NCBI GenBank assembly: GCA_044235305.1
Contig: JBIIHY010000001.1
Coordinates: 1 to 26,961, forward strand
Direction: 5' to 3'
Source: Bdellovibrionota bacterium
GTDB taxonomy: Bacteria; Bdellovibrionota_C; UBA2361; OMII01
DNA length: 26,961 nt
Of the stretch, positions 1 to 15,496 are shown piece by piece. Below the pieces are notes generated by a model that saw only the letters and a list, made by a program, of their open reading frames with translations, did no database searches and was not told the DNA's origin. How positions within the stretch are numbered: the stretch's first letter is position 1; every line of letters begins with the position of its first letter. The translations under genes and the position numbers were made by a program.

Positions 1-3000
1 TGTGAGTCGGCTGTGCACGAGAGCGGTGCTTTTGTTACCGTCAGTTTGCCGTTGGCGGTTGTGATCGTATAGAGCGATGCGGTTGGAGCTGAATCCCAGG
101 TGATGGCGTAGCCTGTTGTCTCGTTCACAGCAGAAGTAATTGTTGCTGTTGTAGTAAGAGTACCTCCCTGTATTCCGTCAGTTACGACCGTGCCGTCACT
201 TCGTCTGCAGGTAAACGAGAAAGAAGGATTAGCAACACCGTATTCGCGAGTGGCGTCGTTCGCGGTACAGGTGACTGGTATTTTATTAACAGTTATCGGC
301 ACTGAGGCAGAGCAGGTGGTGTAGTTTGTATCTCCTGGGATCGCGTAGTTTACGTTTAGGGTTCTTGTACCGGGCAACAGCACCGTGCCAGCCGCCGGAG
401 AATATGTGAAACGTTCTGGGTTCGCCACTGAAGTAGCAGTGCCCCACGCATTAGTGGCAGTTGCGTTAAGCTGAGTGCCGGAGAGAGCAGTACCGTACGT
501 GATTGCAGCAGGAGCACCCCACGCGCATGTGTGAGGCATCGGGTTGACAGTAATCGGAATCGAACAGGTGCTAGCTGTATATCCTGTACCGGGGGTAAAA
601 GTGGCATAGAAGGTGTAGGAGCCTGCACTCAATGTAGGGGTTCCTGTATAGGCGGTCTCTACACCAGTTAAGGAGGATCGAACCGTATAAGAGAATGTTC
701 CCGTAGCGGCGGCTGGGCTCTGTGTGGCGATGATCGAGGTGCCAAATGTTCCGATACTTATGGGGGTGCCGTAGGTAAATGACGGACCGCCAGAGAGTGA
801 ACAGGAGGTGACAGTAGTTGTAGGCGCTGAAACAACAAGCTTGCCGGGAGTGATGCTAGAAATATTGTACTTGGTACTACTAACTGGACCGCTAAAATCT
901 CTATGCTCGATATCGTACGTCCCAGCTAAAAGAGCGCCAGTTACCTCTGTTTTAACCCCAGTCTCAGTCTTAAACACCTTTAAGTTAATACCGCTTACGC
1001 TACTTATCAAATCAGAGCAGATAAAACCCGAGCAGCTAGTTGTAAGAAAATTCGCTGGCACTACCCCAGCAACCATCGCTTTATCATCAGCTTTACAGCT
1101 AAGTGGAGCCTTCGAAATGGTCAGGTATCCAGTGCCAACCGCAATGTCATAGAGACTCGAGGACGGCCACCCTGATGGGGTAAAGTTTATCTGATAATTG
1201 GTCGCCGGTGCGCTGCAGTCCACCGCCGACGTTGCAAGGACCCCGCCACTTATATCGCCTGTGACAATAGCGCCAGTCGGATCTGTCCCTACCCTACACT
1301 GGTAATCGAACGCCGGGTTTGCCGTCCCATACACCTTGGTCTTATTGTTTGGCCGGCAGGTGACCTGTTTCTTATTAACCACCACAGTGGTTGTGGCCGA
1401 GCAGCCGTTAAAATTATTAGCAACAGCCGGTGGTGGTGTAAAAGTTACCTGAACCGTGTACGTCGCAGGTGTCAGTATCGACCCCACCGACGGGGTAAAG
1501 CTAAAGAATCCAGCCTGCCCCGAATTTGTACTAGAATACGACGCTCCGCCAAGCACAGCCGCAGAAGCCGTCAGCGAAAGCGGTGTCTCGTAGTCAATCG
1601 GTGTTGGCGATGTAAGTGAGCAGGCGTAGCTAGCTTTATTAATTGTAATCGGCGTAGAGCATGTTGATGGGGCGTAGGTCGTATTATCTGGAACAAAGTC
1701 TGCATAGAGGGTGTATGTCCCTGCGTTGTAACCGATCTCTGGGACAAACGCACTCGCCGTCCCTGTGCTCGTCGGGGCAATGCGGTAGGTAACAGAGCCT
1801 GTTAAGGTACTACCCTTCGATGCTCCGGTAGCTATCTTACCAACTGTGGCAGGCGATATGGGGTTTTGAGTGTTAGGATATGTGAAAATGCCCGTGCCAG
1901 CCGAGACGGTACACATACTCGGTCTCTTCGGATCAGTGAGAAGCGCCCCATCCTGCCAGGTAATCTCGTAGTTTGTGCTCGTTGGAGTTGTTGTGTAGGT
2001 AATAGCATTACCAACAATTCGCAAACCACCCGTGTTGATAGCAGCGGTGCTCTGAGTATCTGGGGCGATAAAACCAGAACAGCTAAAAGTGAGTGAGCTT
2101 GCATCAGGAAAAGGCTCGCCGTCGATTATCCTTCGATCATCTGCTCTACAGGTAAGGGGTGCTTTATTTACCACCTGGTTCCGCGTCAATGGAGCACACG
2201 CCAGATAGTTGGTAGAATCTGTCGGTGTAAATGTCGCTGTAATTGCGGTCGTGCCAGCATTTAGCCTTGTAGAAGCTAGCTGCGAGTATGTGAAGGTTCC
2301 AGGAACAGTCCCCCCGTTGAAGGTGGCTGTTGCATTAAGGTGCGCTGACGGTAGCAGCGTTCCGTAGGTGATAGCACTTGGTGTCGTCCAAGCGCACGTT
2401 GGTTGCGCCTTGGTGATGGTGAAGGTGGCAGAGCAGTCCGTATTAGCATACGTCGGATCGGTCGGGTCAAACGAGGCCGTTACTGTATAGCTATTGGCGC
2501 TTGCATTCGGAAAAGTTCCGCCCCCCGAGTAGTAGTAGGAGAACTGCCCCGCTAACGCTCCCCCTGTCCCGGTAGTTCCCGAGCCTACCGGCGTTATTGC
2601 CGTGCCATATGCGAACGAAGAGCCACCAACAGATACCGAGCACCTTGTCGTTAAAAACGCCTTCACTGTTAGAAGCGCTGTTGATGTTGAGACGGTGTAA
2701 TTAGGAATAGTTGGCGGGTTACTTGCAACGTAACTGATTGTGTACAGGCCAGGCAGACTACTTGCAGTTGCATTGGTAGTTAAACTACCCCCGGACACCT
2801 TCGCCATCGTATCACCATTTACAAACCCTTCGCAGGTGTGGGTGAGAGGGATGCTTGCTGGGTTAGTGCCCTGAAACATCTCTTTAGGATCAGGCCAACA
2901 ACTCAATGACTTCGGATTTACCGTCAGATTAGTGGAACAAGATTTCGCGTTGTAATTAGCCGTTGCTAGTACGCTCGCAGTTATAGTGTAGGCAGAAGCC

Positions 3001-5651
3001 GATGCATTGAGGGTGATACCTACTATCGAGCTTAAGCCCGAGTATGGAGTAGAGAGCCCTGCGCCTGATATCGAGTAAATCGCGCTCGATGAAGCCGGTG
3101 AAAATACCGCGCTCTGGTGTGCGGAGTTAAGAGCGGTGCCGTAAGTTATCGGGTTTAGCGCGCCGAAAGAGCATGAAGGTGTTGCCTTGGCAACAACAAG
3201 GCTCGCCGGACACTCTGTTATCTCATACGTGGCAGAGTTGCTTGGGGTAAACTTTGCGTAGATCGTGTAAGTTCCGGCACCTAGTTGAGACGCTCCAGAG
3301 GGTAGCGGATTTCTATTCGTTGAGCTTCCTATAGAATATTCATAGATAAATGTGCCAGCCACCGGTACTCCGGATAACGTCTGCGCAGTCGCTGACGGTG
3401 TAGTCGTTGTGCCATAAGTTATCGAGTTGCCCCCCATGAGAGTAAGGTCGCACCGCGTTGCTATCTTGTTAGTGATTGTTAAGGTGCCAGGAGTAGTTGT
3501 GATCTGGTAGTTGTTGTTTACCGGCACACTTGTGTAGGTAATCGGATACTCCCCTACAGGACTACTTGTTGTGGCCGTTGTTGTTAGGCTCCAGCCTGTA
3601 ATTGAAGTAGCAGTGTCAGGCGAAACCAACCCGGTACAGGTCTGGGTTAGTGCTGGCAAGGACGACGCCCCCACTGTCATCGACTTATTGTCTGCCTTAC
3701 AGGCAAGTGCCAGCTTGGTAACAGTGAGCGTGCCCGGTTGTGTGGGAATTGTATAATTAGTGGATGTTGGCGCTGACGCCCATGTAATCGGATAGTCACC
3801 TGCATTACTGCTATCAGTAGCTGTAGTAGTGAGTGAGCCTTGGGTAGCAAGGTTTGCAGTGCTCTCACCGGTAATAAAACCAGAGCAGGTGAATGCAAAG
3901 CTTGGATTTGCTTGCCTGTAAGGCCGAGAGGTCGAAGTAGCTGTGCACGTTAAACTCTTTGGCGTAACGACCTGAACAACTGATACAGATACCGGTGATG
4001 GATAGGTAGCTGTGTCGCTTGCTCGGAATGTAACGCTAATCGTGTTGTTGCCGACGGGAAGAATCGTTCCCGCGGCACGGGAATATTCAAAGGTTCCAGG
4101 AACGTTTGCAGTTGCATTTAACTGTGTTGCTGAGAGAGCTGTTCCGTAAACAATCGCTGCCGGTGTGTTCCATGTGACAACAGGAGGCGGCACCGAACAT
4201 TGCGGAAGCGCCGTAGTAACCGTAAGGCCCGAGCACACATTCCCGCCGTTTACTGGCCCGCCATTTGTGCCCCATGTCTGAACGAAATTTCCAGCCGTTG
4301 CAAGACAACTTGGAACTGTCGCTGGCTCTAGGGTTGTCTTCTGGCAATCTTGAACTAGTTGGCAGCTTGCGTTACAGCGCCAACCATTTGCTGCGGTATT
4401 GGCGGCTGGAAGAGTCGTCCCGTCGCACTGGTCTGTACCGTTTATGACGCTATCTCCGCACGATGTACATGCAGGTAGCGCCGTCACAACCGTGAGATCC
4501 GTGCATGCAGCTCCGCCGTTTATCGGCCCACCATTGGTGGACCAGGTCTGAGTAAAATTCCCTGCCGGTGATTGGCAACTAGGGACAGTTGCAGGACTTA
4601 AGCTGACCTTCACACAATCTTGAATCAACTGGCACGAAGCGCTGCAACGCCAGCCGCTTGAAGCTGGTTTATCCGCTGGCAAAGCGCTTCCATCGCAGGC
4701 ATCCAGCCCGTTTATTACCCCGTCCCCGCAGCTTGGCCCAACCACTCCCCCTGTGCACGGGAAAGTAGGAAGCACCGGGTAGCAACTTAGATTTGGATTG
4801 CTTGCTGGCTGCGAAAATGGCCAACTTGATGTGCTTGCGTATTGCCCACACGTTACTACTCCACACGAAGACGGTGTTGGTGTAACTGTTGGAGTTGCTG
4901 TCGGCGTAGGGGTGTTTGTAGGGGTTGCTGTCGGCGTTGCCGTGGGCGTCGGTGTTGGTGTTGAGGTCGGCGTATTCGTTGGTGTTGCCGTTGGCGTCGG
5001 CGTGCGCGTTGGAGTAGCTGTTGGCACTGGATGAAGCGCCACTGCTGGTGCCGGCATCGCTACCGTAAACCCTAGAGCTCGTCCGGTATCACCACCTAGT
5101 AGCCCAGCAAAGCCGCCGCTTATCGGACTGGCACGAACCGCCATGGCGAGAAAGCTACCAACTTGGTCTGATGAAAGATTGGATAAACTTGCTGACGAGT
5201 TAGTATATGTCGTCCCATCTTGAAATCGCGCTGTCTCACCGGGGCGCAAAGCCAAAGCTCTGTAATACACAGTCTGGTCATCTGGGTAAGAACCCATAAC
5301 CATTCTATCTGGCGACATGCAGCTCGACATGCGACTGCGGGTCAGCGCAAGCTGCTCAACAGTTGTCCGTGCATTACGACGCGTGGCAAGATCTGAACTC
5401 TGCAACCCAGATATTAGCTCCCTATTTTTACTTATCTCAGTTACCGACTGCCCAATCGATGACTGCGAGCAGCTCGAAGAGAACATCAGCGAGGCGAATA
5501 CAAACCCTGCTAACAATATAGCGCCTACCAAGAAGAGGATAAGCACTGCCTCAACCAGAGCAACGCCCCTCATCGCCGCATACGAGCGGGCGCCACCGCT
5601 AATACGGCTACATAGGAGCTTTTGATTTGCCATCTGTTTATTCATCGGCAC
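1..5651 (-). CDS. Giant TadE/prepilin-like N-anchored, Cys-rich MBG/Ig-repeat surface protein, paralog 1 (3'-truncated by window edge, >1883 aa)
   Basis: GTG at 5651 (ATG at 5645) corresponds to the start of the 13494 ORF (offset 7843). Manual translation shows no stop, and the frame at the left edge ([10 protein letters not shown]) matches the start frame. It is absent from the ORF track because there is no in-window stop. N-terminus [30 protein letters not shown], then PT linker, [14 protein letters not shown] repeats and MBG motifs ([36 protein letters not shown]). Module order is collinear with paralog 2. Confidence 0.9.
4872..5030 (-). repeat. Pro/Thr (PTxT)n low-complexity linker of paralog 1 (~53 aa)
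   Basis: Degenerate gttgg(c/t)gt repeats encoding [52 protein letters not shown]. Confidence 0.9.
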
Positions 5652-5661
5652 AGGGCATGGG
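5041..5661. repeat. Near-identical direct repeat, copy A (5' part of giant gene 1)
   Basis: Manual alignment to 12884-13504 gives 10 mismatches in 621 bp. Confidence 0.95.
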
Positions 5662-5727
5662 TCAGAAGAGTTCGTTGTCTACCCCTACCTTTAACTCTAT
5701 GCCCTACCGAACTACCTGTATAGCCAA

Positions 5728-5765
5728 AGAATTAAGCAGCCTGATAATTGGTGATTACTTGTTTT
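5728..5765 (-). promoter_or_regulatory. Conserved upstream motif, copy A (candidate promoter/TF site)
   Basis: 31/38 identical to 13582-13619 within otherwise diverged intergenic DNA. Core on the coding strand: AAAACAAGTAAYCACCAAWTAYCAGGC. Confidence 0.4.
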
Positions 5766-5850
5766 ACCGATACCGAATTGACCGAGGCGTCGGGTAGTGA
5801 ATCCCCTTAGACAGCTCTGTTGCTAAGTAGGGGAAGTGCGTAAAGATATT

Positions 5851-8800
5851 TTATGGGCAGCGCGGCCATACCTGCTCGGTAGATGTTGTCCCGCCCAAAT
5901 TGACTCCATTGCCGGAAAACATGGTAGTGGGGAAGGTAAAGGCCTCCATGCCCGTGTCAGCGTGGCAAAAGGTGAAATCCTTAGGGCTCCCTGGACACTC
6001 AGAACCCATATTGACGTTTACAGACTTTCCGCAACTGTTTGTCACTTGTCTCTGCCTACGCCCTCGCTTCGGACAACAACGGCCCGAAGGACCAACATTT
6101 ATGTCAACAAGACCTCCGAAATAGCCGGGCTGATTGAACGACCACAGACCTGTAGCATTGGAAGGCACTTGTATAATCCCAACCTCCTCACTCCAAGCGC
6201 TATAGAGGGTTTGTGTCCTCGTGCCCCCCGTACACAACGGCCACCCATCTTTATCTGTTGGATAAGGACCAAACCAAACCGTCGTCAGGCACTGTCCTTT
6301 AGCCGAGTCAGGACAACTGTACTTACATGCAACACAAGAACAACCCAATCCCGCGCATCCTGAGTCTATCCCACCATCACATTCCTCAGAGTCTTGGTTG
6401 ATTTGACCATCTCCGCAGAACGGCCCCGTCACTGGCTGAGGTACAACCTTAAGCTTACCAGAGCAAGTAGTCGGTTCATAAAATTCATCCCCTGCTAGAG
6501 TAGCATCTACATCGTAGTCGTTCGCTGCTAAGGTTGATCCATTCGAGAGAGTAGTTTTCGAAGAACCAATCGAAGCTACATACGTAAAGTTTCTACCCGA
6601 AGCGCTATCAGTCAGCAGATAGTTTGCCCCTGCGCTATCCTGAATTTTTACCGTATTTGGCAGGGTGATGGTCTGCGGAGTAGCTAAGACGCATGCCCCT
6701 TTAGCTTTATTCACCGTTAGAGTGCCATCTGTAGACGTAGTTAAACTCAGTCGGTCATTCGCGGGGAGGGTTGCCTTAATGGTGTAGCTCCCAGGCCTTG
6801 GAACGCCTGAGCCTGGCGTAAGAAGCAAACTACTCAAGTCATAGGAGTACTGCCGACCGTCTGGAGCAGTGCTAGGGAACGTACCTCCACTGCCGTCTAT
6901 CGTAACCGCAGTCGGCCACGTTATTGTCTTGTTCGTTACTGAGCAGTTGTCCCCTTGCTTAGTGTTTACAGTCAGAGCTCTGGTTACCTCACAGCCATTC
7001 CAGTTTGCATTACCAGCCCAGGACATCTTGAGATTGTATATGCCTGCAGCGGAGAATGTAGAACCCGCACTCAAGGATTCCGTTACGGCACCGACTGTGC
7101 GTTGGTAAACCATTGCGGGCGAAGTCAAGGCAGTCAGATTGTCTTTAACTGTAGCCCCAAGCACAGATGCTGGAACCGTCTCATCTACCTTAAGCGAAGT
7201 TGGAGACAGCGTCCAGGCGCACGTAGGCGTTCCTTTTCCAATGGTCAGAGGCGCTGAACAGACTGCGCCGCTGGTGCTCGACGTACCTGAAAAGGTCGCC
7301 GTTATGTCGTAGGTTCCGGCTTCCAGGGTAGTTGCGGACGAATCTACCACGCCTGTGGTGTTGCCTCCAACTCCCATCGCTTGAGCAGTCGCACTACCAT
7401 CTTTTTTATAAGAGAACGTGACCGTGCCACCAGTGACTGGAAATCCAGAGGACGATACTGTTGCCCGGGCTGTGATAACGTTTCCACTACCAAAATTCCG
7501 AGAGGCGCCACCACCTACGATCTCAATCCCGCAGTCTGCTTGCGGTAAGGCTTTTATCTCTAGCGTCCCTTTGGTTACCGTTACCGCGTAGTTAGACGCT
7601 GTGACCGATGGGGTGATATCGTATTTACCGACATCTTCGCCTGCGGCGCGAGTATAACTGATCGTCGGATTGTTGCTATTTAGGATGCCACTGCAGCTAC
7701 CTGTAAGTGTGGGGTTGGCAGCTCCCTTGAACTTAGACTTAGAGTCGGCTTTGCAGGAGAGCGGTGCTTGCGTGACCTCAAGCTCGCCCGGAACTATCGC
7801 AATATCATAGATTGTCGAGGTTACACCTGTAAGCGTGATAGGGTATTTACCGACATTCGATAGATTATCGGCTGTTGTTGTCAACGTTCCGCCGGTTATG
7901 GAGTCAGTGATCGTTACCGACGGGTTACTGCGATCGTAGCAACGGTAGCTCAGTGTTGGATTAGCACTACCATATTGACGCGACACACGGTTGGGTTTGC
8001 ATTCAATTCCGGCTGTGGTTGTGACTGGTATTTTGTTCACCGTAATGGTAGTCGAGGTTGGGCAACCGGTGAAGTTACCATTGCTAGGAATAAAAGTTGC
8101 CTTCAATAGGTGAGCAACAGTGCTCGCCACTAGCACGGTGCCGGCCGGAGGATCGTATGTGAAACTCCCAGCAGGCGCTGGGGAGGAAGTCGCTTTGGCG
8201 TTAAGCTGGGTACCTGTCAGAGCGCTGGGGTAGTTGATAGCAGACGGTGCTGTCCATGAACATGTGACAGCTTTCGGTTTGACTGTTATTGCTGCAGAAC
8301 AGGTGGACTCTGCAACATTAGAATTAGACGGTTTAAATGTTGCCGTGAAAACATGAGACCCAGCATTCAGGGTTGGTGGATAATTGCCGTCGTAAACAGT
8401 ATTTGTAGAACCATTCGAGCTAATTTGGTAAGAGAAAGTTCCATTGATGAAGGAACTAGCGTTTATATTATATCCCGACGGTGTGCCAACAGTTATCGTA
8501 TCGCCATAAGTATACACAGTGGGATTAGCCTCGAGCGTGCAAGATGAAGGCGAAACTGCTACTGTTTTAAGCTCTCCGGAGTCCAGGGTGACGTCGTAAT
8601 TTGTGCTCGAGATGGCCAGGCCGGTCTGATTTTTGATTGTATACGTCTTGTTCGCCGTTTGCACATCGGCGTCCGCTATCTCTTGCTCTATATTGTTAAC
8701 GGTTTTATAAGCCTTCAGTGTTATCCCACTCGGCGCACTGCTGCTCATGGTATCCGCACCCACAAAGCCGCCGCAGCCGTAGGTATAGCTAACTGGCACC

Positions 8801-11800
8801 TTGGCAGTTTTCGTCGCCTGGATAACTCGGTTGTCAGCCTTACACCGCAGTGGCGCTTTCGTGATCGTAAATATTCCCTTTTCCTGAGCATTGCCATCGA
8901 GACTAGTCTGAACCTCATAGACGTCTGACCACGGCACTTTGTCCCAGGTGATACTACCGATGATGGTCCCTGGGACTGTATTGTTCCCAACAGTGGTCTC
9001 TAGTTTCCCACCAAAGATATTGGCTGGAATGATAGCTTTATCAATATTATCCGATTTGTTTTCGCCTGCCCTGCATGTGAAATCCAGAGGCGGATTTGCT
9101 GTACCATACACCTTAGTCTTATTATTTGGCCGGCACGTCACATATGTTTTGCTGACTGTCAGATCCTTTGTTGTCGTGCAACCGTTAAAATTCTTTTGCA
9201 CAGCGGACGGCGGCGTAAAATTAACCTGAAGCTTATAACTTCCGGGTCTAAGCGTTGAGCTTGCCCCTGGATTGAATACAAACCGGGTGGAATTGCTCGT
9301 GCTATTATATGTATCTCCCCCTGTGGCGGAGGCAGTAGCCTGAAGATTGACCGGGGTGCCATATTCAATCGAAGCGGGAGGCGGAGAAGTAAAGCTACAT
9401 TGATAGTCCCGTTTTGCAATCGTGACCTGCGTCGTGCACGTTGTTGGTAAATATTGGTCAGTTTCTTTCGGGGCGAATTTTGCGGTGATAGTGTACGTTC
9501 CAGCGTCGTAATTCTTGGTGGCACTAAACGTTTCAGAAGAGAGCTCTGCTGATGCAATCGAGTAAGAAATAGTAGACGCTTCCACACCCCCTAATGCGGT
9601 GGTCGTTGGCGTCCCTATCGCATCGCCATAAGTGAGACTCGGATTTGTTACCGTCACGGTACATGCGGGGGTTATTTGGGGGTCAATCTTTAGAACCCCG
9701 TCAGTCCACGTAATCAGATAATTACTATTCGTCGGCGCAGGCGAGGCCGTGATGTAGCTTCCTGAAGGACCAGTTACAACCACTAAAGTGATTGGAACCT
9801 TGCTTTGAGTATCTCCGTTAACAAACCCATTACAGCTGTAGGTAAGCGCAGGGTTCGGCTGCCCTGCGAATTTCCGCTTATCGTCTGCTCGACAGGAAAG
9901 CGGCGCCTTATTTACCTTCAAGGTTCGCTTTAAGCTGCAGGTATTGAAATTACCGGCACTAGCAGTAGAAGGAGTAAAAGTCGCTGTGATCTCCAAGGCG
10001 TCGTTAGCGTCTGGTGTCGTAGCACTTGCTGGTGAGTACGAAAAAATGCCGGCAACCGTGGCGCCGTTATACGTCGCCACCGCATTCAACTGATCGACTG
10101 ACAGCTTGGTGCCATACGTAATCGCTTGCGGTTGTGCCCATGCGCAGGTTGGCGTCACTTTCGCAATCGTAAAAGAGGCACTACACGTTGCTGTGTCATA
10201 GTTTTTATTTGCTGGGGTAAAGGTGGCAGCTACTGTGTAATTTCCGGCAGCATTAACTTGAAAGCTTCCGTTAATCGGCACACTTGCTTGTCCACCACCC
10301 GTATAGGAATAGGAGAAGGAGCCTGCCATAGTGAAGCCGTTGCCATCTTTTCCTTCGCCCCTAGGGTAGATGTAACTACTCAACACCGGACTCGCTGGAT
10401 CTATGGACACAGTGCAGCTAGACGCTAGCTTCATATTAACAGTGAGCTTACTCTCCGTTGTTTTGACGGTGTAATTTGGGATTGAGGGCGGGCTGCCGGC
10501 GACATAACGAATGTAGTAATTGCTACCCACTGGACTACTTGCGGTTGCATTAGTCTCTAATGCTCCACCGCTTACTTGGGCCATAGAGTCAGGTGCCACA
10601 AAATCAGATGTCGTACATGAGTGTGTGAGCGGTATTTTTGACGGATCCGACCCTTGATACATGCTCTTAGCGTGCGGAGCACAATTAAGATCTTTTGAGT
10701 TGACCATCAGCGTCGTTGAACAGGAGCTTGCGGAGTAGTTGTTCGTCTCCGGTACACTGGCGGTAATTGTGTAAGCCGAATTAGAAGCATTCAACTTGCG
10801 GTCTACAATCGTAGTGAGGTCAGTAAGTGGCGCCGCGAGAGCTCCTCCAGAAATTGAATAAAATATCTGCTCGTCGTTCGGATTAAATGATGCCACAGCC
10901 TGCTGTTGCGCCAAGGTGAGCGAATTACCGTACGTAATCGGGGCAAGCGTCCCAGGGGAGCACCCTCGTGCTGCCTTGGTTACAGTGACGCTAAGAGGAT
11001 CGCAATTGATTTCTGCATAGGTCTGAACACTCGGTTTGAAGCGAGCGTACATGGTATAGGTACCAGCTCCGAGCTTAAAACCATCAGCTGGGAATGTCTG
11101 CCGTATCCCATTTACCCCCGGAGCGACCTCGTAACTAAAACCCCCGTTTACTTGTGTGCTACCATCCATCACTGGATTACCAGTTACCTTGACAGTAGCA
11201 CCGTAGCTAAACGTTCCCCCGCCACCTATGGTGCATCGCAGCACGGTTTTATCAGACACGCTCAGGGTCGCATTTGAAGTTGTTACGTTGTAGTTGGTCG
11301 CTGAAGGCTTTGGATTAGTCGAATAAGAGATCGGATAGTTGCCCGTTACGGCAGGCGATGTAGCTGTAGTAGTTAAAGAGCCGTTTGACAGCACCACCTG
11401 TGCAATTTCATTATCAACGAACCCGTCACAGGTAGCCGTAAGAAAAGTAGTTGGGTCGAATGTAGCGCCAGCGGTGAGGGATTTATTATGTGCCGCACAG
11501 GACACGCTACGTTTACTGACCGTAAAGAGATTCGTTCCTGGCTTTCTAGATATCGAATAGTTCTTTGCCTCGGGAAAATCGCCCCAATTAATATCGTACG
11601 TCCCAGCATTACTAGCAAAAACAGCTGTAGTGGTGAGAGAGCCCGCCTTAGTGAAAACAGTCGTCCCTTCCAGCACTCCTGATTTAGTGATGAAGCCCGT
11701 GCACGAATAAGCCAGAGCAGGGTTGGCTGCTTTGTAGAGCCTACTGGCAGCCACGGGAGTACATTCTAATCCCTTTTGGGTGACTTTTTGATTAACTGTC

Positions 11801-13494
11801 TTAGTTACCTCTGGGTATCCACCCTGGCCCCTGAAGGTAACAGAGAGGACATTCGTATCACCAACATCTAAAATAGTACCGGCAGGCGGCGAGTACAGGA
11901 AGTCGCCTATTACAGTCGTTCCGTTTACCGTTGCTGTAGCATTAAGCTGTATGCTTGATAGTTCAGTACCGTAAACTATTGCGGCCGGATCGTTCCAGGT
12001 GATAACCGGAGTAGGGAGGGTGCATTGGCCAACATATGTCGTCTTTGTGAGTTCGGTACATGGCGCTCCACCACCATCAGGGCCTTTTGTTTGCCAGACC
12101 TGGGTAACATAGCCCGGCGTTGCAGAACAACTTGGAACTGTGTCTGGTACTAGGGTTGTCTTCTGGCAATCTCGGACCAATTTGCAGTTTACACATCTCC
12201 AGCCGTCTGTGGCAGGTTTGTCAGCAGGCAGTACGTTGCCATCACATTCATCTGTGCCGTTAATTCCATCGTTTTTGCACGTTGTGCAGGTTGCTGTGAC
12301 GAGCGTCGTCACTGTCAGAGAGCCACACGCGGTTCCGCCGTTTACCGCAGCGGCGAGAACTTCCCTCGTTTGAGTGAAATTTCCAGCGGTTTCAAGACAA
12401 GCTGGAACCGTCGGTGGGTCTAGGGCTGTCATCTGACAATCCCGCACCAACTCACATTTGTTGTTACATCTCCACCCGTCTTTAGTGGAATTTCCATTGA
12501 GGTCTGTACCATCACATTGCTCTACGCCCTCTCTTATTCCGTTACCGCACGAGGGCGGGAGAGTAACCGGTCCGCCCGTGCACGGGAACACTGGCAGAGA
12601 TGTGTAGCACGATACAGTTGGATTACTTACCGCCGTTGAAGAGGTCCAAGATGGTGTCTTAGCGTAATCGCCGCACGAGAGCACTGGACACGGATTATTC
12701 GTTGGAGTTGCCGTTGGAGTTGCTGTTGGCGTTGCTGTTGGCGTATTTGTGGGAGTTGGCGTCGGTGTTGGTGTTGGTGTTGGTGTTGCGGTCGGCGTAT
12801 TCGTGGGTGTTGCGGTTGGCGTACTGGTCGGCGTTGGCGTTGGCGTGCGCGTTGGAGTAGCTGTCGGCACTGCCTGAAGTGCCACTGCTGGTGCCGGCAT
12901 CGCTACCGTAAACCCTAGAGCTCGTCCGGTATCACCGCCTAGTAGCCCAGCAAAGCCGCCGCTTATCGGACTGGCACGAACAGCCATGGCGAGGAAGCTA
13001 CCAACTTGGTCTGATGAAAGATTGGATAAACTTGCTGACGAGTTAGTATATGTCGTCCCATCTTGAAATCGCGCTGTCTCACCGGGGCGCAAAGCCAACG
13101 CTCTGTAATACACAGTCTGGTCATCTGGGTAAGAACCCATAACCATCCTATCTGGCGACATGCAGCTCGACATGCGACTGCGGGTCAGCGCAAGCTGCTC
13201 AACAGTTGTCCGTGCGTTACGACGCGTGGCAAGATCTGAACTCTGCAACCCAGATATTAGCTCCCTATTTTTGCTTATCTCAGTTACCGACTGCCCAATC
13301 GATGACTGCGAGCAGCTCGAAGAGAACATCAGCGAGGCGAATACAAACCCTGCTAACAATATAGCGCCTACCAAGAAGAGGATAAGCACTGCCTCAACTA
13401 TAGCAACGCCCCTCATCGCCGCATACGAGCGGGCGCCACCGCTAATACGGCTGCATAGGAGCTTTTGATTTGCCATCTGTTTATTCATCGGCAC
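5851..13494 (-). CDS. Giant TadE/prepilin-like N-anchored, Cys-rich MBG/Ig-repeat surface protein (putative adhesin), paralog 2, 2547 aa
   Basis: Contains RG|VAIVE plus a 24-aa hydrophobic helix, a PT linker, Myxococcus-type Cys-rich repeats ([43 protein letters not shown]), about 21 stalk modules of ~80-100 aa including 8 MBG-like ones (e.g. [33 protein letters not shown]), and a Cys-rich C-terminal domain. The true start may be GTG 13494, ATG 13488 or a later Met. Confidence 0.92.
12700..12870 (-). repeat. Pro/Thr (PTxT)n low-complexity linker of paralog 2 (~57 aa)
   Basis: Encodes [57 protein letters not shown]. Confidence 0.9.
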
Positions 13495-13816: not shown

Positions 13817-14902
13817 TTATGGCACCCAGTCGCAAACAGCAGGGTCTAGATTGGCAGTGCACGACGGACAGCTTGCCGGTTTATACCTCGGATAGCTACT
13901 TGCTGTTCGGTATTCATAGTAGCAATCAGGCGAACCAAGAAAGAGTTGCGCGACCTGCTTTACGATCCCAGTCCCCGACATGGTACAGGTGTCTGGAAGG
14001 TTCGGCTTCGCTATGAGGGTGAAACTCTCGCTCCACGAACAACCGGACGGCCCAGAACTGAGTCCCCAATTGTGCTTACGACTGTAGATCTGCCCGTTAC
14101 TAGTAATCTCATCGCAGTACTCTGCCGGTTTTGGCCCTGCTATGCTTGTTGTAGTACCTATGCACCCTAATCTGCCAAAGGAGTCCACCTGACAGGTGAA
14201 GTTAGTTTGATCGCACCACCCGCTCTTTTGAGCAGTGGCACACGCTGCTCCAACATTTGCGACGCTTGCGCATGTGGTGGCACAAGTTCCACCGCCAGAA
14301 GCAGACAGTGCGCCATTGTTGCAAGCAAAGACCTGAGAGCCCTTAGGCGTTGATGGGTAAGTTATACCTGAGACTTTTGCCGATACGACAGCCGTGGCTG
14401 TAATTGTTTGGCCGTGTGCAACAGCGTCACCTGTCGCCGTGCAGGTATTACCCTCAACAGTCCATGATACCGGCTGAGAGGCGCAGTTCACCGGCACTGC
14501 GGTCGTCGCTGTTGGTGTCACTGTTGGCGTTGCCGTCGGCGTCGGCGGAACCGCCATACACGTATTAGAACACAACCCTATCGGGTAACTTCCGGCAGCC
14601 GCGCCAGAAGGAGCAGCACCCATGGCAACACAAGCATACTGCCCACTACACGTCCAAGACGGGATATTACTTGCGTCACATACCTTTCCTCCAGAGCAAC
14701 ACGGGCTTGAGCCGGTCCCACAGTTGTTCGGATCATTAAAGCAGCAGAACTGATTTCCCCCACAGGAAACCGAAGAGTAATTTCCAACGCATCCTTGAGC
14801 GTTTGCGTCGTTACAGAGTGCGAGGAAAGAAAAAATGAGAATTGGCAACAGTAGCGCTCGGCACACCAGCTTATTTGCGATGACAGCGCCGAGACTCCAC
14901 AT
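13817..14902 (-). CDS. Secreted cysteine-rich hypothetical protein (~361 aa)
   Basis: Likely start is ATG 14902 (the ORF track starts at 14965). Sec-type signal ...RALLLPILIFSFLALCNDANA|Q, 28 Cys counted in the mature part, short PT linker ([16 protein letters not shown]). Confidence 0.82.
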   Translation of the reverse strand: MWSLGAVIANKLVCRALLLPILIFSFLALCNDANAQGCVGNYSSVSCGGNQFCCFNDPNNCGTGSSPCCSGGKVCDASNIPSWTCSGQYACVAMGAAPSGAAAGSYPIGLCSNTCMAVPPTPTATPTVTPTATTAVPVNCASQPVSWTVEGNTCTATGDAVAHGQTITATAVVSAKVSGITYPSTPKGSQVFACNNGALSASGGGTCATTCASVANVGAACATAQKSGWCDQTNFTCQVDSFGRLGCIGTTTSIAGPKPAEYCDEITSNGQIYSRKHNWGLSSGPSGCSWSESFTLIAKPNLPDTCTMSGTGIVKQVAQLFLGSPDCYYEYRTASSYPRYKPASCPSCTANLDPAVCDWVP

Positions 14903-15496
14903 ACGCCAGCTCTTGCTAGCACGGAGCGTGTCCTCACACAGGTTTAAGCAGCCGCAACGCAACATATACTTTAAGTATTACCACCGACGGGCTCGGCTGA
15001 CTACAAGAGATCTCTCTAAGGCAGCAGACTCGCAAGATATAGTACTACCTCTAGAGGTCCTCCCTACCCTCAGCCTACGCATCTCCTGTATTCAGACTCA
15101 GTAGATTTTCGTAAAATCGGAAAAGCTGTTTGGCAAAAAACCTCTAACGCGCCCCCTAGACCTGTGCTACAAACTCCCAACCTAACGGGCGATGAGCCCC
15201 TCGGGTGTTACTCACTTATTTGCCGTTCTATGGCGGCCCTTCTATTCCAGCTTATTTCGTGGAGTGAATGTAGAAGAAGGCCCGGGTAGTCCTTTAGGCA
15301 CCCAACGATCCGCTTTTGCAGCAGGGCCGGGTTTTGCCAGGGATGACCAGTACAATTATTAAAAAGACTGGAGAGCTTCTGAGCTCTAGTAGGCTGGTGC
15401 ATGCATGGTAAGCACCCCCCACGCTCAGAAATCGAACTAACTATTTCAGGGCGCTTAGAGCCCTTTAGCCACCTTTAGCGTTTGAATTCAGGCACT

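Follow-up and report, generated by a model that had tools for sequence, protein, structure and literature searches.

What kind of protein is encoded by the two giant genes that lie in tandem on a contig of an uncultured freshwater Bdellovibrionota bacterium, and how could such long fibres be sorted? The stretch analysed here (the window) covers contig C3 (26,961 bp) in full. C3 belongs to a metagenome-assembled genome with a size of 3.07 Mb and a completeness of 83%, which is split into 435 contigs. Two tandem minus-strand open reading frames (ORFs), gene 1 (product P0001) and gene 2 (product P0002), occupy the first half of the contig (Table 1). The two products are colinear and share 56% identity overall, with 99.5% identity over the first 200 residues. 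We propose that the product of each gene is probably a giant modular minor pilin (pseudopilin) of the Tad/type IV type; its leader would be cleaved and the rest of it would be displayed on a pilus.

The proposal starts from the N-termini. A preliminary description of this DNA had noticed that both paralogues begin with a basic residue followed by Gly, a hydrophobic residue, three further positions, Glu at +5 and a long hydrophobic helix, and we found this pattern at 13324-13413 and 5481-5570. In P0001 it reads Arg28-Gly29/Val-Ala-Ile-Val-Glu34 (the slash marks the predicted cleavage site), followed by an uninterrupted hydrophobic run to Phe57, and P0002 carries the same motif with a Leu32 variant; both leaders are 27-29 residues long and end with Arg-Gly. 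G/xxxxE is the class III signal motif shared by the minor pilins TadE (PF07811), TadF (PF16964) and TadG. Such a signal consists of a leader ending with Gly, Glu at +5 and a hydrophobic helix of at least about 20 residues, and the giants have RG/VAIVE plus 28 hydrophobic residues. The G-x4-E motif on its own is weak evidence, because a crude scan of all six reading frames of the genome for this motif followed by a hydrophobic 16-mer gave 26 matches, 11 of which were internal membrane segments; the remaining matches were 13 N-termini of Flp, TadE or type IV pilins or pseudopilins and the two giants.

Conservation of the motif is more telling. A phmmer search of 1.84 billion representative proteins recovered only four relatives of residues 1-210 of P0001, and among 40 related genomes the N-domain was present in three of the 24 sister species searched and absent from the 16 other families of the order; a stalk-based search added the complete 2535-aa orthologue P0010. 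Gly(-1) and Glu(+5) were invariant in all nine homologous N-termini recovered (32-62% identity), while the leaders before Gly varied freely (15-40 aa, sequence not conserved), and the motif therefore stands above chance. Class III signals are marked by such a pattern, in which conservation sets in right at the predicted cleavage site and an invariant Glu is buried. The short members of the family (327, 387 and 586 aa) consist of the N-domain, a Pro/Thr (PT) or Gly/Thr (GT) linker and small Cys motifs; thus, the N-domain is a self-contained module that carries passengers of widely differing length.

The likeness to TadE extends beyond the motif. In the profile search suggested in the preliminary description, TadE (PF07811) aligned to the N-domain in the right register, but its score stayed below the curated threshold: the genome-wide search gave 13.3 bits (cut-off 22.9) at 13324-13410, covering profile positions 1-29, and two members of the N-domain family matched TadE at an E-value of ~0.07. 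Comparison with TadE alignments of the same genus by hhalign placed Gly and Glu in register (P values from 6e-4 to 3e-3), and the TadE proteins of the genus begin with G/SALVEAAIV, G/AAFIEAAFV and similar sequences, which closely resemble G/VAIVEAVLI of the giants. In the companion search for N_methyl (IPR012902), the giants had no match to this family in Pfam or NCBIfam; their motif is of the Tad type. When a hidden Markov model (HMM) of eight N-domains was searched against the 25,314 ORFs of the genome, only the two giants were found, and the Flp pilins appeared at a non-significant E-value of ~1.3.

Structure prediction points to the same families. We obtained two AlphaFold models of the N-domain, one with a predicted local distance difference test score (pLDDT) of 61.9 and a predicted template-modelling score (pTM) of 0.52, and the other, built from nine sequences with the leader removed, with a pLDDT of 76.6 and a pTM of 0.63. 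Both contain a helix of ~47-53 residues, followed by short helices and a beta-sheet. Among the AlphaFold DB clusters, 21 of the top 30 matches to the first model and 13 of the top 20 to the second were named TadE-like, TadG-like or pilus assembly protein (best E-value 5e-4, template-modelling (TM) score ~0.4-0.5). The ESM Atlas rows belonged nearly all to TadE, Tad, TadF or N_methyl families (TM 0.48-0.62), the best match being to a TadF cluster (153 aligned residues, 4.0 A), and the highest TM over the fold searches was 0.62/0.63. By language-model features, 80 of 100 neighbours of the N-domain fell in TadE-containing sets (scores 0.94-0.95). The structural check suggested beforehand thus turned out in favour of a pilin: the predicted models combine a long helix with a beta-sheet, in a pilin-like fold the AlphaFold DB and ESM Atlas neighbours of which are almost only TadE, TadF and TadG.

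The genome also contains the machinery that such pilins would need. The search for tad genes and a prepilin peptidase, proposed in the preliminary description, was successful: we found one prepilin peptidase gene (PF01478), which is cut by a contig end, two Flp pilins on contig C306 adjoining ATPase and platform genes, a second Tad-like locus on C55, and a trio of CpaB-like, TadE and TadG-like genes on C401. Ten T2SSE ATPases, two secretins and TadB/C-like platform proteins are also encoded. TadE occurs in 30 of the 31 genomes of the genus, where TadE-type N-termini above the Pfam cut-off also head frames of 700-860 aa; large Tad minor pilins are therefore normal in this lineage. The earlier idea of Tad/type IV minor pilins that carry an adhesive stalk of >2,000 aa is hence supported by the predicted TadE/F/G-like fold, the in-register TadE alignment and the machinery in the genome, and none of the three refuting outcomes named beforehand applies.

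No other part of the giants offers a sorting signal. As previously noted, the complete copy lacks a recognisable C-terminal secretion or anchor signal: no autotransporter, RTX, PEP-CTERM, LPXTG or type IX secretion system (T9SS)-type family was detected with Pfam and NCBIfam, no C-terminal sorting or anchor family appeared at E<=1 in either collection, and the last 218 residues had no Pfam match at E<=0.01. The C-terminal tip of ~200 residues gave neither a Pfam match nor an ESM Atlas feature match, and the Cys-rich repeat region (residues 267-491) matched nothing in Pfam. Pfam matches in P0001 were confined to seven MBG_2 domains and a weak Big_3_5. Of the 77 Cys residues in P0001, 76 sit beyond the membrane helix, and the ~21 domains of the stalk, at ~4 nm per domain, would span ~80 nm. 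Stalks built of the same MBG_2 and Ig-like blocks occur in giant surface proteins of Bacteroidota (2,000-4,000 aa; P0009, P0013 and P0021), but these 'gliding motility-associated C-terminal domain' proteins carry an N-terminal Sec signal and a C-terminal PF13585 of the gliding/T9SS type, and the giants have neither. Like passengers are therefore coupled to different export devices across phyla. Besides the giants, the genome encodes a single MBG protein (C308, 700 aa), which starts with an ordinary Sec signal of the cleavable type. As both the Sec signal of C308 and the PF13585 of Bacteroidota are lacking in the giants, the N-module is the only candidate sorting device here. We also asked whether C308 could be the lost 3' end of gene 2 and dismissed this, as it is a separate 700-aa MBG protein with a Sec signal and only 27% identity.

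Is the N-domain a genuine part of the giants? The database gene calls P0007 (this contig, 2193 aa) and P0019 begin at the equivalent of Met355 and thereby drop the pilin module. If Met355 were the true start, the N-domain would not belong to the giants at all; likewise, a repeat of 620 bp with 98% identity in a short-read contig carries a risk of misassembly, and the tandem pair could be an artefact. Both possibilities appear most improbable. No stop codon separates the N-domain from the stalk, and the giant of the orthologous locus L056 was called at full length (2535 aa) from the same GTG. The Met355 start was probably caused by a 102-aa ORF with an ATG start on the opposite strand of each N-domain (13160-13468 and 5317-5625, plus strand), which misled the gene caller; this antisense ORF is broken in L056. 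Each giant differs from L056 at ~100 positions in the N-domain region, distributed over codon positions 1/2/3 as 16/11/73, with a ratio of synonymous to non-synonymous codons of 60:24. This third-position bias and the broken antisense ORF indicate that the N-domain is truly coding in the sense frame, and the pilin module appears to be under purifying selection as a protein. Regarding the assembly, public contigs from several independent freshwater studies contain the giant locus. One run contains a 352-bp contig that extends from the stop of gene 1 across the intergenic region to the start of gene 2 with zero differences, and in this run the N-domain repeat also branches into the two upstream flanks. 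Since the module escapes Pfam and one gene caller removed it, such proteins are annotated as plain 'MBG domain' or hypothetical proteins.

Two further observations come from public runs. In a drinking-water metagenome (X4), the tail of a 96%-like gene 1 is present at 95-99% identity and is followed by unrelated DNA after the stop codon at 5851, so that the tandem arrangement varies between strains. In a freshwater metatranscriptome (X20), contigs cover the N-domain region 5214-5627 at 95-99% identity, a hint of transcription, with DNA carry-over in the RNA library being possible.

Several observations weigh against the assignment to pilins, and a first group concerns the N-domain itself. Searches of residues 1-270 against Pfam and NCBIfam by hmmscan returned nothing usable, with no Pfam TadE match at E<=1. 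TadE was the only family matched by two members of the N-domain family alignment, and its best E-value (0.065) did not reach the curated threshold; PF13400 (the TadG N-terminus) had no match in the genome, and the N-domain family HMM missed the TadE proteins of the genome itself. The TM-scores of the models were mostly 0.4-0.6, and Foldseek found no match in PDB at E<=0.001. With VIA-align (48,161 chains), the highest Z was 6, for unrelated folds, and type IV and type II secretion system (T2SS) minor pilins reached only Z 3.4-4.5. No solved Tad minor-pilin structure was among the PDB matches.

These weaknesses leave room for an ordinary Sec signal or signal-anchor with a convergent likeness to TadE, in which case the fibre would be exported by another route, such as type II secretion after cleavage. 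The sub-threshold Pfam match, the moderate confidence of the AlphaFold models and the 11 unrelated membrane segments with the same pattern agree with this alternative, as does the presence of a T2SS with its secretin in the genome. We nevertheless judge it improbable, as (i) a hydrophobic run of 28 residues is too long for the h-region of a cleavable Sec signal, (ii) Gly and Glu are invariant though the leader varies, (iii) three independent searches (AlphaFold DB, Atlas shape and Atlas features) converge on TadE/F/G, and (iv) the MBG protein on C308 displays what an ordinary signal peptide looks like in this genome.

A second group of observations concerns gene context and geometry. Neither here nor in relatives do the giant genes show linkage to a Tad or type IV pilus locus, and small minor-pilin partner genes as in the kilLMN trios are not adjacent; there are only the two giant paralogues. 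The preliminary description had rightly stated that the window lacks pilus machinery, the neighbours of the giants being a Cys-rich secreted protein, a HAD hydrolase and ribonucleotide reductase (RNR) genes. In relatives, the N-domain genes adjoin PrkA-DUF444-SpoVR, AMIN proteins or a PMT glycosyltransferase. The ~80-nm stalk exceeds the periplasm by far, which leaves its threading through the secretin ahead of the pilus unexplained. The capping pseudopilin GspK of type II secretion lacks Glu5, and the invariant Glu5 of the giants therefore disfavours the topmost position at the tip. Finally, cleavage, pilus association and surface exposure are all inferred.

The same points can be read to mean that the pilin-like module is a membrane anchor only, and that the fibre acts in the periplasm or envelope, or is released by proteolysis, without ever being on a pilus. 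The protein would then remain in the inner membrane, whether cleaved or not, as has long been proposed for TadG. Besides the missing linkage to pilus genes and the difficulty of passing an 80-nm stalk through a secretin, this alternative gains from the family members of 327-586 aa, which hold little beyond the N-domain, the PT/GT linker and small Cys motifs, and from AMIN-domain envelope proteins being recurrent neighbours. Yet a disulfide-stapled Ig/MBG stalk of 80 nm that ends in a fast-evolving domain is what extracellular adhesins typically have. Stalks homologous to it are exported to the surface in other phyla (PF13585), and no role of the invariant Glu5 is known for a passive anchor. 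We thus regard a function as a mere anchor as unlikely, and favour the giant minor pilin.

Known systems provide close parallels for such a pilin. In the Tad Tip of the Myxococcus Kil system, KilL, KilM and KilN, encoded by three clustered minor-pilin genes, form a heterotrimer. Its large TadG/KilN-like pilin presents a distal domain that is variable and rich in disulfides, paralogous tip clusters are found apart from the main loci, and Bdellovibrio is predicted to have analogues (PMC12075869). Prey invasion by Bdellovibrio bacteriovorus requires the Tad machine together with a lone tadG, and the tad loci contain no TadV (10.64898/2026.07.08.737194). The giants share with TadE/F/G and the Kil Tip the G/xxxxE signal and a small pilin-like module with an alpha1-N helix. 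They further resemble the Kil Tip in being large minor pilins with a variable, disulfide-rich distal domain and paralogues away from the main tad/kil loci, in their occurrence in predatory lineages (including the predicted Bdellovibrio Tip), and in the Tad/Kil machinery of the genome (two Flp, TadE, CpaB-like, TadB/C-like platforms, ATPases and secretins). On the other hand, the giants are ~2,500 aa long with a stalk of ~21 domains, in contrast to one compact distal domain; they lack adjacent L/M partner genes, the upstream protein having a Sec-type signal; and they form two tandem copies with a homogenised pilin module. Unlike TadE and TadG pilins, their N-module is too divergent for PF07811 or PF13400.

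An open frame of ~800 aa at C276:1781-3439 (L003:1426-3084) has an RG/VYLLE-type N-terminus (PF07811, E-value 0.14) and no Pfam domain in the 553 residues scanned, and its counterparts of 790-860 aa across the genus exceed the Pfam cut-off. This protein is likely the large TadG/KilN-like minor pilin of the lineage.

Modular type IV pilins, such as PilB and PilC of Streptococcus sanguinis, link a pilin module to adhesive modules for a proposed display on the filament, and the most extreme multi-domain example named in the survey of Raynaud et al. (2021) has 860 residues (PMC8179133). The giants follow the same plan, with an N-module, a 60-aa PT linker and then Cys repeats and MBG/Ig modules that are not specific to pili; however, the pilin modules of the former are N_methyl (IPR012902) and type IVa-like, while those of the giants are of the Tad type with a passenger about three times longer. 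CofB and TcpB are type IVb minor pilins with extra beta domains after a flexible linker, which sit at the tip and initiate assembly (PMC8179133). They are likewise large minor pilins with domains beyond a linker, but CofB has only ~500 residues, is trimeric and is encoded inside the pilus operon. The giants carry the pilin module in the same polypeptide, which sets them apart from PilY1. PilY1/PilC is a large adhesin at the tip of type IVa pili that is not itself a pilin and docks by a C-terminal beta-propeller onto minor pilins. The 'undescribed system' of the preliminary description was therefore an overstatement: the giants take two known designs to an extreme, that of modular minor pilins (PMC8179133) and that of the Tip pilins of the Myxococcus Kil system (PMC12075869), and are not a new kind of machine.

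How did the pair arise? P0002 is orthologous to the single-copy giants of two other genomes, P0010 (86% identity) and P0019 (83%), to which P0001 is only 44-50% identical. In L056, the upstream flank matches that of gene 1 and the giant body matches gene 2, and L056 shows the ancestral order of a HAD hydrolase, a Cys-rich secreted protein and one giant. The N-domain DNA of genes 1 and 2 is 98% identical, whereas their stalks share ~50% of residues, which indicates gene conversion. Only 11 differences occur in the first 618 nt (10 changed codons, nine synonymous and one non-synonymous), against the ~100 that separate each copy from L056; the pilin module was therefore recently homogenised. At the protein level, the N-module is 99.5% identical between the paralogues in the genome and 87% identical to the orthologue. 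Identity between orthologues ranges from 63 to 91% along the stalk and then drops to 43% and 26% in the last two alignment windows, a pattern expected of a ligand-binding tip. As in the Kil Tip, a conserved alpha1-N base (99.5% and 87%) is combined with a variable end domain (26-43%), which would match a conserved docking base with a variable tip.

Taken together with the known systems, the following scheme can be proposed for the giant minor pilins. The hydrophobic alpha1-N helix would insert the preprotein into the inner membrane, so that the leader faces the cytoplasm and ~2,300 residues extend into the periplasm, where the 76 extracytoplasmic Cys would form disulfides. The prepilin peptidase would then cut the leader off after Gly29, and the TadE/F/G-like module would enter the helix bundle of the pilus initiation (tip) complex or the filament. 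The growing Flp filament would carry the pilin module outward through the secretin, and the PT linker, the ~80-nm MBG/Ig stalk and the variable Cys-rich end domain would project from the pilus as an adhesin. Such a fibre may serve the recognition of prey or surfaces, the lineage being likely predatory. Gene conversion would keep the pilin module identical in both paralogues, so that both fit the same machinery while stalks and tips differ.

Tad pili are required when Bdellovibrio invades prey and when Myxococcus kills on contact, and the target range is thought to depend there on variable minor-pilin tips. If the scheme is true, the pilin head, the 80-nm stalk and the fast-evolving end domain would together make an inbuilt arm that binds receptors at long reach, and it would raise the mechanical question of how a long, folded and disulfide-bonded passenger exits through a secretin. 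A bolder and rather doubtful extension is that a pilin-sized export handle threads ~80-nm fibres of 2,500 residues through Tad/type IV pilus secretins of a diderm bacterium as a general, unrecognised route of display. The conserved 620-bp handle might then also anchor recombination by which stalk-and-tip cassettes are exchanged or gained, and such cassettes would set prey or surface specificity in predatory Bdellovibrionota.

Table 1. Coordinates of the giant genes, their predicted parts and the upstream gene in the window.
Feature	Position	Strand	Evidence
Giant gene 1 (P0001, 2547 aa, complete)	5851..13494	(-)	ORF list, translation, seven Pfam MBG_2 matches
Giant gene 2 (P0002, 1883 aa, 3' end lost at contig end)	3..5651	(-)	ORF; orthology to complete 2535-aa P0010 (86% identity)
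Leader peptide of gene 1, residues 1-29, ending Arg-Gly	13408..13494	(-)	Sequence; L056 orthologue called from the same GTG
Predicted alpha1-N hydrophobic helix, residues 30-57, invariant Glu at +5	13324..13407	(-)	Sequence; PF07811 match (13324-13410) below the threshold
TadE/F/G-like pseudopilin module, residues 30-206, invariant Cys61 and Cys111	12877..13407	(-)	AlphaFold models, fold searches, language-model features
Pro/Thr-rich linker, residues 207-266	12697..12876	(-)	Translation; PT or GT linker after the N-domain in every homologue
Cys-rich repeat region, residues 267-491, 20 Cys, CG[ND]G...CDG-type repeats	12022..12696	(-)	Translation, Cys map
Stalk of ~21 Cys-bracketed beta-sandwich domains (MBG_2 and Ig-like), residues 492-2344	6463..12021	(-)	Cys spacing, Pfam, PF18676 genome matches
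C-terminal Cys-rich tip domain, residues 2345-2547	5854..6462	(-)	Most variable part between orthologues
Leader and pseudopilin module of gene 2	5034..5651	(-)	DNA 98% identical to gene 1
Upstream Cys-rich secreted protein (382 aa)	13817..14965	(-)	Sec-type signal and own PT linker; conserved neighbour of the giant gene in L056

The start of P0001 was taken as the GTG at 13494, with Met3 or Met7 as alternatives. Scans for sigma-70 promoters and terminators in the regions upstream of both giants gave nothing above the shuffled expectation. The upstream Cys-rich protein (13817-14965, minus strand) belongs to no Pfam family, and its gene has 77% DNA identity with that of L056; it could be a partner of the giants.

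Short members of the N-domain family at L020:10276-11982 and L021:7231-8382 stand beside AMIN-domain proteins, near a lone PilP and next to the PrkA-DUF444-SpoVR operon. The AMIN-domain neighbours were considered as a link to pilus secretins and rejected; they are not independent evidence, because the synteny is probably shared by descent. A gene of the PMT family (GT-C, protein O-mannosyltransferase-like) directly follows the giant in both orthologous loci (L056:10210-11481 and the P0019 contig). The contig analysed here ends before the corresponding position, and 11 PMT_2 matches occur elsewhere in the genome. Given this conserved neighbour, the 60-aa Pro/Thr linker of the giants may be O-glycosylated.

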